64,000 nt of DNA from an uncultured Bacteroidota bacterium (GTDB taxonomy: Bacteria > Bacteroidota > Bacteroidia > Bacteroidales > GCA-2748055), in NCBI GenBank assembly GCA_963735755.1, contig CAVTME010000005.1, positions 150,973-214,972 of the forward strand, read 5' to 3'. The notes below the pieces were generated by a model. The model ran no database searches and was not told where the DNA came from. It saw nothing but the letters and a program-made list of their open reading frames with translations. Numbering within the stretch: position 1 is the stretch's first letter; each line of letters starts with the position of its first letter. Positions 56,008-63,892 of this stretch are shown here, in pieces. The position numbers and the translations under genes are program-made.

Positions 56008-56400
56008 ATGGACAAGCAAAAAAGTGGCATAAGCGGAGCTGCTCAAAATCCAGGCCCTTCCAGGGAAGGGAACTGCATCCTGGGTATCAGGAACAGGTCA
56101 GGAAGAAAGCTGAACCTGGTGATCCACGGGACGGAAGTAAATGTGGTACGGGCAATGACCGTCAGGAGGTATAAGCGTTTGAAGCTTGTAAAGGGCACTT
56201 ACGTCGTGGAGGCCTGGTTGTCAGACGGTCGGATAGGGATCAATGCCATCAACATTCCCCACATCAGCATAGAAAAAATCACATCCAGGAAGGACGTCTC
56301 CATCAGGGGCCGGAAGATCGTGGCCGATTTCGTAAATGACCGTGCCAAGCTGGAGATTGACAGGGAACCATCAACAGGTGACCTGGTACAGGATATCTAA
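56008..56400 (+). CDS. Hypothetical basic protein; coding status uncertain
   Basis: A 130-aa ORF that converges on metH and overlaps it by 4 nt. I recognised no motifs. Confidence 0.3.
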
Positions 56401-59400
56401 TAATTAAGATTGGATGCCAGGAGGCTTTCTACCCTCTGCACACTTAATTTTTTACGTTCTGCATAATCTTTCACCTGGTCTTTACCAATTTTCCCAACAA
56501 AGAAATATTTCGATTGGGGATGGGCAAAGACCAATCCGCTCACCGATGCTGCCGGGACCATGGAATAGGTCTCTGTCAGGTTGATTCCATATTTCTCAGC
56601 TTCCAGTAATTCAAAAAGCACCGCTTTCTCCGAGTGTTCGGGACAGGCGGGGTAGCCATGGGCCGGCCTGATCCCGGCGTACTTCTCTTTGAAGAGCTCA
56701 TCCATGCTGAGCGCCTCATCGCTTGCATAGCCCCAGAAGTTTCTTCGGATCTCTTCATGAATCAATTCGGTGAATGCTTCCGCGAGCCTGTCGGTGAGCG
56801 CCTTCAGCATGATGGATGAGTAGTCGTCATGCTGTGCCTCGAACTCCCGGATTTTTTCCTCGATCCCTATGCCGGTAGTAAGTGCAAAAGCCCCAAGATA
56901 ATCGGTGAGCCCCGATTCAAGCGGCGCCACATAGTCTGCCAGGCTCAGGTTGGCCATTCCCTTCTCCTTCTGGGTCTGGTTACGCAGGTTGGTAAACCTG
57001 GAGATCTCCTTTTTACGGGTTTCGTCAGAATAAACCAGCAGGTCATCACCCACTGCATTGGCAGGGTAAATGCCAAAGACTGCATTGGCTGTAAGCCACT
57101 TCTCACTGATAATCCGGTCCAGCATATCCCTGGCATCCTTATAAAGTTTTGTAGCCTCTGTTCCATACTTTGGATCTTCCAAAATATCAGGAAACTTTCC
57201 CCTGAGCTCCCAGGTAACGAAAAAGAACACCCAGTTAATGTATTCGCTGATCTTCTCCATGGGAAAATCCAGAAGTGCATGTACGCCGGGTTTAGCCGGC
57301 TTGATAATGGACCCGGGGGTCCATTTCAGTTTTAGTGCATTTTTCCTGGCGGCTTCCAGACTGAGGTACTTGATGTCCTTTCCTGCACCCGCATAGCTGG
57401 TTCTCAGGGCCTGGTAATCTTTCTTCGCTTCATCGACGAAAGAAGCACGTTGGTCTTTGGAAAGCAGGGCGCTTACTACAGCCACACTCTTTGAGGCATC
57501 CTTCACATGGATGACCGGTCTGCCAAATTTGGGTTCGATCTTTACGGCTGTATGGATCTTGGATGTGGTAGCTCCGCCAATCAACAGATCCTGTGTCATA
57601 TTTCGTCGCTCCATTTCTGCAGCCACAGAGATCATTTCTTCCAGAGAAGGGGTGATCAGTCCCGAAAGACCAACAATATCCACCTGAAGCCGCTGGGCTT
57701 CCTCAAGGATTTTTTCGGTGGGTACCATTACGCCCAGGTCGATGACCTCATAATTGTTACAGGCCAGGACCACCCCCACAATGTTTTTTCCGATGTCGTG
57801 CACATCTCCTTTTACCGTGGCCAGAAGTACTTTTCCGGCTGCGGAACTTCCGCCTGCTTCGGTGCCGGTTTTCTCCTGCTCGATAAAGGGAAGCAGTATG
57901 GCCACAGCCCGCTTCATCACCCGGGCGCTCTTGACCACCTGTGGAAGAAACATCTTGCCGTCTCCGAAAAGATCACCCACTACGTTCATCCCTGCCATCA
58001 GGGGTCCCTCAATTACTTTCAGGCCCAGTCCGATTTTTTTATGCGCTTCCAGAGCATCCTCCTCCACATGGTCTGCGATCCCCTTCACCAGGGCATGCTT
58101 CAGGCGCTCCTCCACTGGCAGATCCCTCCAGGCATCTCTTACAACTTCAGTTTTTACCTCTTCTCCCAGTGTGGCAGCGTATTCAATCAACCTTTCTGTG
58201 GCATCGGCCCTCCTGTTCAATACCAGATCTTCGGTACGTTCAAGCAGTTCAGCGGGGATCTCATCATAGACCTGCAACATGCTGGGATTCACAATCCCCA
58301 TATCGAGACCAGCCTTGATGGCGTGGTAAAGAAATACAGAGTGGATGGCTTCTCTCACCACATTGTTGCCCCGGAACGAAAAGGATAGATTGCTGATGCC
58401 CCCGCTAACCCTGGCATGGGGGAGGTTTTCCTTGATCCAGCGGGCGGTATGAATGAAATCCACGGCATAGTTGTTGTGTTCCTCGATACCGGTGCCGATG
58501 GTCAGTACATTGGGATCAAAAATGATATCATCGGGCGGGTAGTCCAGCTTTTCCCGAAGCAGATTGTAGGCACGTTGGCATATCTCCGTCCTTCGTTCAA
58601 ATGAGTCTGCCTGCCCGCTCTCATCGAAGGCCATGATGATGGCTGCAGCTCCGTAGCTTCTGATTTTTTTCGCCTGCTCAAGGAATATCTCTTCTCCCTC
58701 TTTCAGACTGATGGAGTTGACAACGGCTTTACCCTGGATGCATTTTAATCCGGTCTCTATCACTGAGAATTTGGATGAGTCGATCATCAGCGGTACTTTG
58801 GATATGTCCGGTTCGGCAATCACCAAATTCAGGAAGGTATGCATCTCATGTTCAGCGTCCAGCATGGCATCATCCAGGTTAATGTCGAGGATCTGGGCTC
58901 CATCCTCCACCTGCCTTCTGGCGATCTCCAGGGTCTCATCATATTTCTTCTCCCTGATCAGCCGTGCAAATTTCCGGCTTCCAGCCACATTACATCGTTC
59001 ACCGATATTGATAAAATTGGAGCCTTCGAAAGCGGTAAGGGGTTCCAGTCCGCTTAGTTTTAATCCGGGTGTAGCTGTTATGGGTTCCCTGGCGGCAGCA
59101 TCCTCCAGGAGATTGGAGAAAGCGCCGATGTGTTCCGGTGTTGTACCGCAGCAACCTCCTACAATATTGATAAAGCCAGAATCAAGGAAGTCTTTGATCA
59201 GAACCGACATCTCTTCGGGGGTCTCGTCATATTCTCCAAACTGGTTGGGCAAACCTGCATTGGGGTGAACCGAAACAAAATGAGTCGATTTAGCGGACAG
59301 CTCCTTCAGGTAGGGCCTGATCTCCTTTGCCCCCAGGGAGCAGTTTAGTCCAATGGATAGCAGATCCACATGGTCGAGGGAGTGCATGAAAGCCTCCAGG

Positions 59401-60080
59401 GTTTGCCCTGACAAGGTGCGGCCACTGGCATCGGTGATGGTACCGGAAACCATCACGGGGATGTGAAGCCCTTCTCCTGCAAGGTATTCTTCAATTCCCA
59501 TCAGGGCAGCTTTGGCATTGAGTGTGTCAAATATTGTTTCCACCAGAAGCAAGTCAGCTCCCCCCTCCACAAGTCCCTTCACCTGTTCCCTGTAAGCCAC
59601 TTTCATCTGGTCAAAGGTGATGGCCCGGAATCCAGGGTCATTCACATCAGGTGACATGGAAGCAGTTTTATTGGTGGGCCCAATGGATCCTGCCACGAAC
59701 CTGGGTTTGTCGGGATTTAATGCGCTGTACTTTCTGGCAGCCTCTGCCGCGATACGGGCCGACTGAAAATTGATGTCGTAGACCGCATCCTCGGTATGAT
59801 AATCGGCCTGGGAAATGGATGTTGCATTGAAAGTATTGGTTTCAATAATATCCGATCCGGCTTCCAGGTAGGCTTCGTGTATCTCCCGGATCACATCGGG
59901 CCGTGTAAGAGAAAGTAGGTCGTTGTTTCCTTTCAGGTCACTGGGATGTGACAGGAATCGCTTTCCCCTGTAGTCGGATTCTTCCAGTTGGTAGCGCTGG
60001 ATCATGGTCCCCATGGCACCGTCCAGAAGAAGAACCCGCTGCTTCAGGATCTGTTCTATATTTTTTTTTGATTCGGTCAT
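56397..60080 (-). CDS. metH: Cobalamin-dependent methionine synthase
   Basis: All modules are present: Hcy-binding ([11 protein letters not shown]...GGCCGTTP), pterin-binding, B12-binding ([10 protein letters not shown]), and the AdoMet activation domain ([12 protein letters not shown]). The ATG at 60080 is preferred. Confidence 0.95.
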
Positions 60081-60149
60081 TTGTTGTATATGATAGATCT
60101 CCAAAGATAATCAACTTGGGATCAGTTTCCCATTCAATTGATTCTCGAA

Positions 60150-62598
<2,449 letters not shown>

Positions 62599-62655
62599 AG
62601 AATGTGTTGTGTTGGGGATACGAAACTTCTATGCCGGCCAGAAGGCCAGACACCC

Positions 62656-62766
62656 TTACCGAAGTTCCGGCCAGGGCATGGACATAGGCAACATGGGCAT
62701 AATGAAGTTCCTGAACAATACAGGATCGTATGCCTGTTCCCAGTTACTGATGGTCATTTTTTTCAT
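62656..62766 (-). CDS. Candidate 36-codon Met-rich leader peptide (MKKMTISNWEQAYDPVLFRNFIMPMLPMSMPWPELR)
   Basis: ATG at 62766 in an A-rich context and TAA at 62656-62658. Six of the 36 codons are AUG, four of them within eight codons. It lies between the SAM-I aptamer and metY. It is too short for the ORF track; I translated it by hand. Confidence 0.3.
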   Translation of the reverse strand: MKKMTISNWEQAYDPVLFRNFIMPMLPMSMPWPELR

Positions 62767-62778
62767 TGCTTCTATTCG

Positions 62779-62873
62779 TTATTATCTCCCTTTCGGGTTA
62801 GGTTTTGGCACCTTCGCCTTGTGGCGGGTTGCCAGGGGATCTTTGAGCCTAATCTCTTACCCCTTCTCAATAA
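62779..62873 (-). promoter_or_regulatory. SAM-I (S-box) riboswitch aptamer
   Basis: Minus-strand RNA: UUAUUGAGAAGGGGUAAGAGAUUAGGCUCAAAGAUCCCCUGGCAACCCGCCACAAGGCGAAGGUGCCAAAACCUAACCCGAAAGGGAGAUAAUAA. It has the P1 pairing (UUAUU/AAUAA), the GGGG...CCCC P2, and the conserved GGCAACC, GGUGCCAA and AGAUAA elements, upstream of Met biosynthesis genes. Confidence 0.85.
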
Positions 62874-62905
62874 CATATCACGGCGATGCGTGACTATTGA
62901 TGAAT

Positions 62906-62913
62906 CAAATATA
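62906..62913 (-). promoter_or_regulatory. Candidate -7 box (TATATTTG) for the met-operon leader
   Basis: It matches TAnnTTTG on the minus strand, about 33 nt upstream of the 5' strand of aptamer P1. Confidence 0.35.
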
Positions 62914-63022
62914 TGATACAGAATAGCTATATGCAAATTCTATATAAGATTAACTTGTCTTTTATTTAGAATGGACATGTGTAATATTCAGAAATACAGA
63001 GGTATAGATACTTCGGGTATTT

Positions 63023-63892
63023 TTAGAAGCTGTAGGTTAATCCCAACCCGAACATCTCTTTGAACTGTACCCTGGTTTCATCCAGGTCAGGTCCGAACTT
63101 GATATCATAGTCGTAAATAAGCTGGGTCATCAGGGTAGCCGAAATAAAATCATTCACCTTGAATGTGAGAAGCAAATCCCAATTTATATCCACATATTGG
63201 GGATTATCCAGGTAATTGGAGAACAGATCGATTTTGGTGTCAAGAAGGACATTCTTCAGGATCTCCTTTTTGTAGGCGAATTTTACATAAACTCCAAATT
63301 CTCCCCGAATGTTTTGGTCAGCGCCCAACCCATATGATTCACCAGAGATACTTTCATCCAGGACAAAAGTAATTTTCCCTGAAACGGGGGCGATAAGTAG
63401 TGAAAGGCCTTCGACAGGCTTATAGTCCATACCTAAGGATAGATTCAGGTAAGCGGGAGCCATAAAATTTGAAATTTTCAGGCGATCTGCTTCTCCAGGG
63501 TTGTCATACCCTTCGGCAAACTGGGTCTTGAAACTGATCAAGCCACTGTAGGACCAGTGCTTGGAAGCCTTATACCCTACTTTTGAGGAGATGTTAATCT
63601 GGTCATCACTCTTCCTGGAGGGATCATCACCCTGTTTGAGCAAGCCAAAGCCGAGTGTAAGGTCGTTGTCCCAGCTGAGTGTGTCATTGTCATAGTCGGG
63701 AGAAAGTTTAAACAGGGCATTTCCGGAGAGGCTGTTTTCTCCCCCTGCAGCCCAGTTTGTAATAGAAAGTTGAGAAACATTCAGCGATGCAACTCCCGTT
63801 ACTTTCCAAAGGGTATCTGCGTCTGTGGGGTCCTGAGCAAAAATGGATCCGGAGAGCAGGATGGCAAATAGGGTCAGGCTATACTTTTTCAT
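63023..63892 (-). CDS. DUF3078-family outer-membrane beta-barrel protein
   Basis: Signal peptide, then LNVSQLSITNWAAGGENS as I remember for DUF3078. It has alternating beta-strand periodicity and a C-terminal GLGLTYSF beta-signal. Confidence 0.6.
   Translation of the reverse strand: MKKYSLTLFAILLSGSIFAQDPTDADTLWKVTGVASLNVSQLSITNWAAGGENSLSGNALFKLSPDYDNDTLSWDNDLTLGFGLLKQGDDPSRKSDDQINISSKVGYKASKHWSYSGLISFKTQFAEGYDNPGEADRLKISNFMAPAYLNLSLGMDYKPVEGLSLLIAPVSGKITFVLDESISGESYGLGADQNIRGEFGVYVKFAYKKEILKNVLLDTKIDLFSNYLDNPQYVDINWDLLLTFKVNDFISATLMTQLIYDYDIKFGPDLDETRVQFKEMFGLGLTYSF

Follow-up and report, generated by a model that had tools for sequence, protein, structure and literature searches.

Probable riboswitch and leader-peptide composite upstream of metY-metX-metH in an uncultured Bacteroidota bacterium

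We analyzed a 64,000-nucleotide (nt) stretch of DNA (hereafter, the window) from an uncultured Bacteroidota bacterium (GenBank assembly GCA_963735755.1, contig CAVTME010000005.1). The reverse strand, on which all window features described below lie, carries a SAM-I (S-box) riboswitch aptamer (62776..62876) in the 5' leader of the methionine (Met) biosynthesis genes metY, metX, and metH. Between the aptamer and the genes lies a small open reading frame (ORF; 62656..62766) of 36 codons plus UAA, with the translation MKKMTISNWEQAYDPVLFRNFIMPMLPMSMPWPELR. AUG accounts for six of the 36 codons, with M23, M25, M28, and M30 clustered inside a span of eight. Judging from about 90 related Bacteroidota sequences, the arrangement is a real, conserved, and probably undescribed composite of a riboswitch and a leader peptide. 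We favor, with moderate confidence, a composite 5' leader in which the aptamer and then a translated Met-codon leader ORF act as two sensors in series, with ribosome occupancy controlling the output. The operon would probably sense S-adenosylmethionine (SAM) plus charged Met-tRNA, the second input being suggested by the codons of the leader.

A first-pass annotation had described this ORF, its AUG content, and its position behind SAM-I and before metY-metX-metH, and all of these facts were confirmed by translation, by Rfam family RF00162, and by NCBIfam models. It had also proposed an attenuator keyed to Met codons in series with the S-box. That idea was partly supported: its core, the serial arrangement of an S-box and a leader ORF with sulfur-amino-acid codons, is supported, and its details are amended below. 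The aptamer matched RF00162 with 69.6 bits against a gathering score of 44.4. The match was full length, spanning model positions 1-108 (the P1-P4 four-way junction), and SAM-I was the sole Rfam family matched across the whole window. The aptamer P1 strands are 62875-62868 and 62784-62777. With the last P1 pair at 62777, the start codon at 62766-62764, and the A-rich linker AAUAGAAGCA in between, the leader ORF opens 11 nt past P1.

The leader reading frame is conserved in the window's clade

The ORF was present with the core [L/P]-P-M-[S/G]-M in the five closest genomes (MetY identity 85-91%), among which a 45-nt indel preserves the reading frame. To avoid bias toward the ORF, we scanned metagenomes with a pattern representing the aptamer only (AAGGTGCCAMAACCTAACCCG), which returned 42 loci. 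An ORF with the same core was found in about 40 of the 42, starting 13-14 nt past the P1 strand ending in GAUAAUAAC. Example leader peptides are MMSMLPMSMPRPELR, MKIRTSFYLLLPMGMGRKLIL, and MKHKDFTLLLLPMGMDCR, and the leader of locus L087 is nearly identical to that of the window. Three loci are exceptions: L093 lost the motif through a ~20-nt deletion, L086 comes from a different lineage, with a leader peptide ending in SMCCF, and L107 is cut by the end of its contig.

Across 38 non-identical leaders of this clade, the nucleotide motif CCTATGNNNATG was in frame with, and open to, the ATG in every case. The distance from ATG to motif was 12, 24, 30, 33, or 78 nt, with 33 nt in 28 of the 38 leaders. 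The motif M-x-M stands 1-11 codons ahead of the stop across the clade and six codons ahead in the window. The first-pass annotation had expected the Met-codon cluster (IMPMLPMSM, 62677..62700) to be conserved in frame. This expectation was clearly borne out for M28 and M30, which are kept clade-wide as M-x-M; three or four Met codons are retained just in a long-form subclade comprising the window, L001, L087, L107, L112, and L114. The 45-nt in-frame insertion of the long form encodes W[E/D]..DP....[R/S][N/S]F. A candidate hairpin within this insertion (window 62709-62725) was weakly supported, with eight pairs and one compensatory change, and was not retained.

Sulfur-amino-acid codons end the leader ORFs of a wider family

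The clade core [L/P]-P-M-[S/G]-M has its counterpart in other Bacteroidota as a run of cysteine (Cys) and Met codons, such as MCMCCCC. We collected these relatives with a MetY search of species-representative genomes, which gave 80 Bacteroidota loci whose upstream regions were scanned with Rfam. A SAM-I aptamer was found upstream of metY in 49 of the 80 loci, like that of the window over the full model length and above the gathering score. A Met/Cys-rich small ORF was present in all 49, which come from diverse Bacteroidota, and in 48 of them an ATG 2-15 nt past the Rfam aptamer end opens an ORF of 21-53 codons. Stacking of the ORF on the aptamer, first proposed for the window, is likewise conserved in relatives, at a short and fixed distance. 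The 49th locus (L029) has no adjacent long ORF and carries a nine-codon mini-ORF, MRMCMCCCC, about 118 nt past the aptamer end.

Neither N-terminal sequence nor length is shared among the leader peptides of the wider family, and their tails are nearly always Cys/Met-rich, ending for instance in CMCMCCCC, MCCCC, or MCMCYCC directly before the stop. Cys accounts for 44.7% and Met for 15.6% of the last ten codons, compared with 2.1% and 1.1% of all preceding codons. Together, the two residues make up 60% of the ORF ends in 43 wider-family leaders, versus about 3% of the remainder. The Cys codons are a mixture of 135 UGU and 83 UGC. When the TGY/ATG run was located without regard to frame, its frame matched that of the ATG behind the aptamer in every one of 38 leaders, at 14 different distances of 78-138 nt. 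Over the same span, the other two frames held 0.7-2.2 stops per leader, with a wider-family mean of 1.5-2.2. Intermediates bridging the window's clade and the Cys-rich family are found in L054 (FRNFIMPLMPMCMC), L010 (ending LTMPMCMR), and L037. From these sequences, the wider family is mainly Cys-rich, and the window ORF, with zero Cys codons, reads as a Met-only derivative.

Leader type tracks operon content (L001-L006, L010, L054, L027-L080, and L081-L122). Met-only leaders stand before metY-metX-metH or metY-metH. Cys/Met leaders stand before metY-metX, with metH absent within the 3 kb examined, and intermediate leaders have metH ~2.3 kb downstream of metY. MetY forms homocysteine from sulfide, and a sensor of both Cys and Met therefore suits operons that produce homocysteine. 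A Met-only sensor suits operons ending in methionine synthase, in a correlation with operon content that is confounded by phylogeny.

These codon patterns bear on two other explanations of the leader. One is that the upstream ORF (uORF) is only a relay, the expression platform of a phylum that does without Shine-Dalgarno (SD) sites: SAM would gate translation, translation would protect the transcript from polarity, and the Met and Cys codons would not be sensors. The ATG adjoining P1, the strong A-rich initiation region, the freely varying N-terminal sequence, and the lack of a terminator/antiterminator pair would all be expected of such a relay. However, it leaves unexplained the enrichment of Cys and Met at the ORF ends, the retention of M-x-M throughout the clade, and the tracking of metH presence by leader type, and we regard it as unlikely. 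The other is that the ORF encodes a functional small peptide, whether Cys/Met-rich and metal-binding or a modified-peptide precursor, that is co-regulated with metY. The Cys-rich C-termini superficially resemble the precursors of Cys-rich modified peptides, but neither Pfam nor NCBIfam models match, N-terminus and length are unconserved, and the composition of the ORF body, with 12-16% G, is not protein-like. In addition, the ORF is always located between aptamer and biosynthetic operon, the window variant has no Cys at all, and no maturase gene was seen in the loci inspected, although no systematic search was made. We consider a functional peptide the least probable of the explanations weighed here.

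Some neighboring families lack this arrangement. In Prolixibacteraceae and relatives (L007-L009 and L011-L026), metY has 74-79% identity. No SAM-I aptamer was found upstream of metY in these loci within the sequence available, which was at most 3 kb and, for several contigs, ended within ~140 nt. Regulation of metY thus appears, from these upstream sequences, to differ between neighboring families. We also observed matches to the Flavo-1 RNA (RF01705) downstream of metY in two Sphingobacteriia loci (L051, 4321-4398; L078, 7041-7119).

A nucleotide-level constraint overlaps the first conserved methionine codon

The core GCCUAUGUCCAUG (62677..62689) is invariant at the nucleotide level in the 38 non-identical clade leaders. 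Directly before the first conserved Met, proline (Pro) is always encoded by CCU (38 of 38), and the codon before that Pro ends in G in 37 of 38, whichever residue it encodes (L, P, M, A, or S). Among the same leaders, the serine codon is UCC in 17 of 17 cases, and the glycine codon varies among GGA, GGC, and GGG. The resulting sequence GCCUAUG (window 62683-62689) is nucleotide-invariant, wobble G included. Because a wobble base is held constant, a constraint acting on the RNA overlaps the first conserved Met codon.

Two candidate partners of this sequence were noted. GCCUA is complementary to UAGGC in the P2 loop of the aptamer, which is invariant in 42 of 42 loci. The second candidate is YAUAG at the base of the downstream hairpin, where CCUAUG and YAUAG are again both invariant. 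With both sides invariant, the pairing of GCCUA with the P2 loop is beyond the reach of covariation, and no partner was identified.

We considered whether [L/P]-P-M-[S/G]-M might be an arrest peptide that stalls the ribosome on Met, SAM, or homocysteine in the manner of TnaC, SpeFL, or plant CGS1, with no involvement of tRNA shortage. A short, fixed motif with an invariant Pro would be consistent with this, and uORF arrest peptides that control Rho are known. However, the invariance lies in nucleotides (CCU only, plus the wobble G) rather than in amino acids, and the motif stands at no fixed distance from the stop. Furthermore, how many Cys and Met the wider-family tails hold, and in which order, varies freely (CCCC, MCMCCCC, CCMCM, and so on), as is typical of sensors that count codons. 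An arrest peptide is, in our estimation, rather improbable.

A conserved hairpin encloses the stop codon

A hairpin at 62621..62669 encloses the stop codon of the leader ORF. In the window, its outer stem is formed by CGGAACUUC (62669-62661) pairing with GAAGUUUCG (62629-62621), with UAA (62658-62656) in an internal loop and a variable inner stem-loop beyond it. We obtained the consensus by running RNAalifold on 12 aligned sequences of the group whose peptides end in PMSMP.PELR. This consensus comprises an outer stem CGGAGCUUC/GAAGCUUCG, a 7-nt internal loop holding the stop codon, and a 7-bp inner stem of varying sequence. Across the 12 sequences, 97.9% of cells were paired, and six pairs showed compensatory change. 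The covariation score was 0.384 versus 0.226 in shuffles, and pairing fell to 33-45% when the 3' partners were slid. At least 4 bp formed around the stop codon in the minimum-free-energy fold of 38 of 40 clade leaders and of 79% of the wider family. In the 40 clade leaders, the median onset of pairing was 2 nt past the first base of the second AUG.

The first-pass annotation had recognized the last codons of the ORF as 5' strands of helices, and for the CGGAACUUC/GAAGUUUCG stem the relatives supply covariation support. In these predicted folds, the leader structure overlaps the end of the ORF, and ribosome position should set the fold.

Given this structure and the invariant GCCUAUG, one might suppose that only the RNA structure matters, with the ORF incidental and its ATGs by-products of a structured expression platform. 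The nucleotide invariance of GCCUAUG and UCC, and the location of the PELR codons within a covarying stem, are what such an explanation would predict. It does not predict a frame kept open, and kept in multiples of three throughout, over at least five length classes of clade leaders and 14 of wider-family leaders. Nor does it predict a start context that fits the initiation determinants of Bacteroidia, or Cys codons that swap UGU for UGC. The first-pass annotation had itself cautioned that the ATGs might arise from CATG palindromes. For the conserved AUGs, that caution did not hold up: U always precedes the first of them (CCUAUG), and half of the clade has GGA or GGG before the second. The structure-only explanation is strongly disfavored.

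The leader ORF has a predicted start region of its own

We counted bases by position around the leader AUG. The A-rich initiation region (62767..62785) consists of the P1 3' strand AUAAUAACG and the linker AAUAGAAGCA. Counts of A are raised at -3, -6, and -12/-13, those of G are low from -17 to -1, and AAA serves as second codon in most leaders. Initiation determinants have been measured in Flavobacterium johnsoniae, a species of the same phylum whose ribosomes ignore SD sequences (PMC6847099), and the signals at the leader start match them. These features point to a leader ORF with a start region of its own, predicted to be functional. In clade leaders, the 3' strand of P1 spans -21 to -14, and in the window it extends to -11. 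Because it sits so near the leader AUG, the upstream adenines lie inside or against P1.

Base composition of the spacer suggests a possible Rho-dependent output

Rho tends to load on G-poor RNA with little structure and with C in excess of G. The spacer between the hairpin and metY (62528..62620) starts C-rich and G-poor (UAUCCCCAACACAACAC) and is a candidate Rho loading region on the basis of its composition. In the clade, the 70 nt upstream of metY contain 7.6% G, compared with 17.9% before other genes of the same loci, and C minus G is +0.16 versus +0.02. The body of the leader ORF is likewise poor in G (12-16%), with C exceeding G. A Rho-dependent output step is, on these compositions, the one we infer to be most likely.

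Other output steps were examined and rejected. A conserved hairpin followed by a U-tract was not found in a scan of the window or in 79 leaders (38 clade and 41 broad). Terminator-like sites were sparse and inconsistently placed, occurring in 11 of 38 clade leaders (5.3 expected) and 18 of 41 broad leaders (8.6 expected), and many were artefacts of UGU-rich codons. On such sparse, inconsistent hits, an intrinsic terminator was rejected as the conserved output. The window does contain canonical terminators at other sites, such as downstream of metH. We saw no sequence complementary to the P1 3' strand by eye, and no formal search was made. A 2:3 antiterminator was not demonstrable in the leaders, in which a single conserved hairpin was found. 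The trp/his/leu-type architecture envisaged by the first-pass annotation was therefore not upheld.

A stalled ribosome might instead act on translation, as in the mycobacterial polycysteine small ORFs (sORFs), by opening a structure that hides the metY start. These sORFs with Cys runs provide a precedent (bioRxiv 10.1101/834739), and the conserved hairpin starts directly after the Met codons. However, partition-function folding with the ribosome footprint masked left the metY start equally accessible, with unpaired probabilities of 0.62 without a ribosome, 0.60 with a ribosome at M-x-M, and 0.62 with one at the stop (n = 29). Moreover, ~95 nt separate the end of the hairpin from the metY AUG in the window, and at least ~40 nt do so in the relatives examined. 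We likewise rejected base pairing between the regulatory codons and either the spacer or the repeats within it: duplex energies compared with shuffled spacers gave a mean z of -0.17, and 3% of leaders reached p ≤ 0.05. Attenuation at the level of translation is accordingly improbable, in our judgment.

Several features of the spacer were observed in passing. In the window, a 7-nt tandem repeat (AGTACTC, 7.3 copies) lies at 62550-62600 and reads (AGUACUG)n in the leader RNA. Period-7/8 repeats of unrelated sequence occupy the same position in L002, L083, L090, L095, L096, L098, L099, L100, and L114, with examples including GACTTTT, TTTACTTA, TATCCAC, CCCATTAA, and CATCATTT. ATG is depleted in clade spacers (the equivalent of window 62528-62655), with 20 observed versus 46 expected and none at all in 23 of 35 spacers. 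It is the rarest of the six permutations of A, T, and G there, and it is not depleted in the wider family. We considered scanning by ribosomes from the leader stop to metY after termination. This was rejected, as its regulatory sign would be wrong for Met starvation and the ATG depletion is confined to the clade.

A model for two inputs, and points against it

Under the composite model, high SAM would stabilize P1 and hold the A-rich tract around -11 to -18 within a helix, keeping ribosomes off the leader ORF. SAM-stabilized P1 may block ribosome loading in this way because Bacteroidia ribosomes depend on upstream adenines and do not recognize SD sites. At low SAM, ribosomes would load onto the leader ORF. 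If Met-tRNA is scarce, they would dwell at M-x-M, right before the stop-codon hairpin, which would raise ribosome occupancy of the leader and fix the fold of the hairpin region. Occupancy would then decide whether RNA polymerase reaches metY-metX-metH, the likeliest means being that ribosomes deny Rho access to an otherwise naked, G-poor leader with C above G. Without ribosomes, at high SAM, transcription would terminate prematurely; with ribosomes, and especially slowed ones, there would be read-through. The operon would in this manner respond jointly to SAM and Met charging.

Several points weigh against this model. In the window alone, Met richness is weak evidence. Among 317 ATG-started ORFs of 25-60 amino acids in all six frames, the Met fraction is at least 1/6 in four, and at least four Met fall within eight residues in two. 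The leader ORF thus sits in the ~1% tail of small window ORFs, with a binomial P of ~6e-4 that is not significant after multiple testing. It is only because the frame is conserved in relatives that the Met-codon feature lies far beyond chance. Those relatives are related sequences, and their counts overstate independence, with 28 of 38 sharing one ATG-to-motif distance. Only two Met codons are conserved clade-wide, and part of their conservation could reflect the RNA motif at GCCUAUG. As locus L029 illustrates, the ORF need not adjoin P1. A sensor built on Met codons is also complicated by the loss of initiator fMet-tRNA that Met starvation brings about. The Rho step rests on base composition, and G-poor 5' regions also precede some other genes. 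Finally, a ribosome stalled at M-x-M is ~65 nt upstream of the C-rich stretch, and direct masking as in tnaC does not fit.

Genomic context of the leader

Downstream of the leader, metY (O-acetylhomoserine sulfhydrylase, 61229..62527) matched TIGR01326 with 672.9 bits, and metX (homoserine O-acetyltransferase, 60150..61232) matched NF001209 with 338.4 bits against a cut-off of 331. The cobalamin-dependent methionine synthase gene metH (56397..60104, bounds as in the listed ORF) matched NF007024 with 2003.9 bits.

Bacteroidetes promoters have the consensus TTTG/TAnnTTTG. A putative promoter of this type, read from the sequence and supported by a generic scan, lies at 62906..62937, with TTTG at 62937-62934, a 20-nt spacer, and TAtaTTTG (TATATTTG) at 62913-62906. 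From its position, transcription would start just 5' of a small hairpin (62877..62894) that abuts aptamer P1 at 2-3 nt on the 5' side. This hairpin shows compensatory changes in relatives (CACG/CGUG, CGCA/UGCG, and ACAC/GUGU). It may stabilize the 5' end of the transcript or stack on P1.

Upstream of the leader, on the same strand, an ORF of 289 amino acids (63023-63892) begins, by eye, like a signal peptide. It had no match among NCBIfam models and could encode an outer-membrane protein of an uncharacterized family.

Novelty and implications

The apparent novelty of a Met-codon leader combined with an S-box, suggested at the outset, stands after checks of Rfam, Pfam, NCBIfam, and the literature. 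At a permissive E-value, no Rfam family other than the SAM aptamer matched over the leader, and no Pfam or NCBIfam model matched the leader peptides. Eight leader peptides were looked up exactly in a collection of 15 billion proteins, and none was present. Met-codon attenuators are almost unknown; a Met-responsive thrA attenuator has reportedly been predicted in Pasteurellales. The element is unannotated, and it is undescribed in the openly accessible full-text literature that we searched. A transcriptome study of B. thetaiotaomicron notes sORFs in long 5' untranslated regions, but only generic ones.

Riboswitch control in Bacteroidia is poorly understood because there is no SD recognition and often no obvious terminator after the aptamer. 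A conserved ORF that opens right beside P1 suggests a general solution, in which the aptamer gates leader translation and the ribosome relays the signal. We tentatively suggest, at somewhat less than an even chance, that the leaders form an undescribed class spanning the phylum, in which P1 gates SD-free ribosome loading onto a sulfur-amino-acid-sensing leader ORF that integrates SAM with the charging of Met-tRNA (and of Cys-tRNA). If this is true, it would be a natural two-input device, with SAM read by RNA and Met (or Cys) charging read by the ribosome. The window would then hold its Met-only version, and with it the first natural case of a Met-codon attenuator built onto a riboswitch. Carriers include the cultivable genera Mucilaginibacter (such as M. 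lappiensis), Pedobacter, Marivirga (M. tractuosa), and Cytophaga (C. aurantiaca), which makes the proposal directly testable.

Comparison with known systems

The aptamer itself is an unexceptional SAM-I representative. The Firmicute S-box leaders, such as those of Bacillus subtilis yitJ and metI, share the aptamer class RF00162 and the Met/Cys gene context with the leader described here. In them, the aptamer is followed at once by a terminator/antiterminator pair, and they are not known to encode a leader peptide. Here, unlike in those platforms, there is no conserved terminator, and an ORF starts 11-14 nt after P1. The usual S-box expression platform, whether terminator/antiterminator or SD sequestration, was thus not found in these leaders, and the phylum does not use SD sites.

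With the proteobacterial attenuators trpL, hisL, leuL, thrL, and pheL, the leader shares a short ORF, end-product codons near its 3' end, and an ORF end that lies within RNA structure. Only two regulatory codons suffice for trpL to work. Unlike the trp-type attenuators, the leader uses Met codons (Met and Cys in relatives), has no U-tract terminator and no demonstrable antiterminator, is preceded by an aptamer, and belongs to a phylum without SD sites.

Cys-codon leaders offer a further likeness. They include the mycobacterial polycysteine sORFs (Canestrari et al., bioRxiv 10.1101/834739), leaders in Actinobacteria (PMC1262725), and uORFC-8-2 of cysS in Rhodobacterales (PMC8632094). In all of these, as here, runs of sulfur-amino-acid codons end a uORF before Cys or Met genes, and the resemblance is closest to the wider Bacteroidota family with its MCMCCCC tails. 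However, those sORFs are leaderless or standalone and lack a riboswitch, and the window variant has Met codons only. The mycobacterial sORFs act by unmasking a downstream ribosome-binding site (bioRxiv 10.1101/834739), and unmasking of the metY start is not predicted here.

Control of Rho by uORFs and leaders that combine a riboswitch with a uORF are both established, as in tnaC, speFL, mgtA/mgtL, and corA (PMC12360218). As in tnaC and speFL, a long, G-poor stretch with no terminator separates the uORF of the leader from the structural genes. In tnaC and speFL, a specific nascent peptide together with a metabolite stalls the ribosome at the stop codon and masks an adjacent Rho site, whereas here a ~50-nt hairpin separates the conserved codons from the C-rich stretch. 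The system nearest in architecture is the leader of Salmonella mgtA, which joins Mg2+ sensing to the proline-codon uORF mgtL, and similarly corA/corL; in each, an RNA sensor and a sensory uORF share one leader. Their output is premature termination that depends on Rho and needs no intrinsic terminator (PMC12360218). The alternative stem-loops that mask a Rho loading site in mgtA and corA were not identified here by folding and complementarity analyses. The leader also differs from mgtA and corA in its ligand (SAM), its codons (Met/Cys), and its phylum, and in a uORF start that adjoins the aptamer P1 at a fixed distance.

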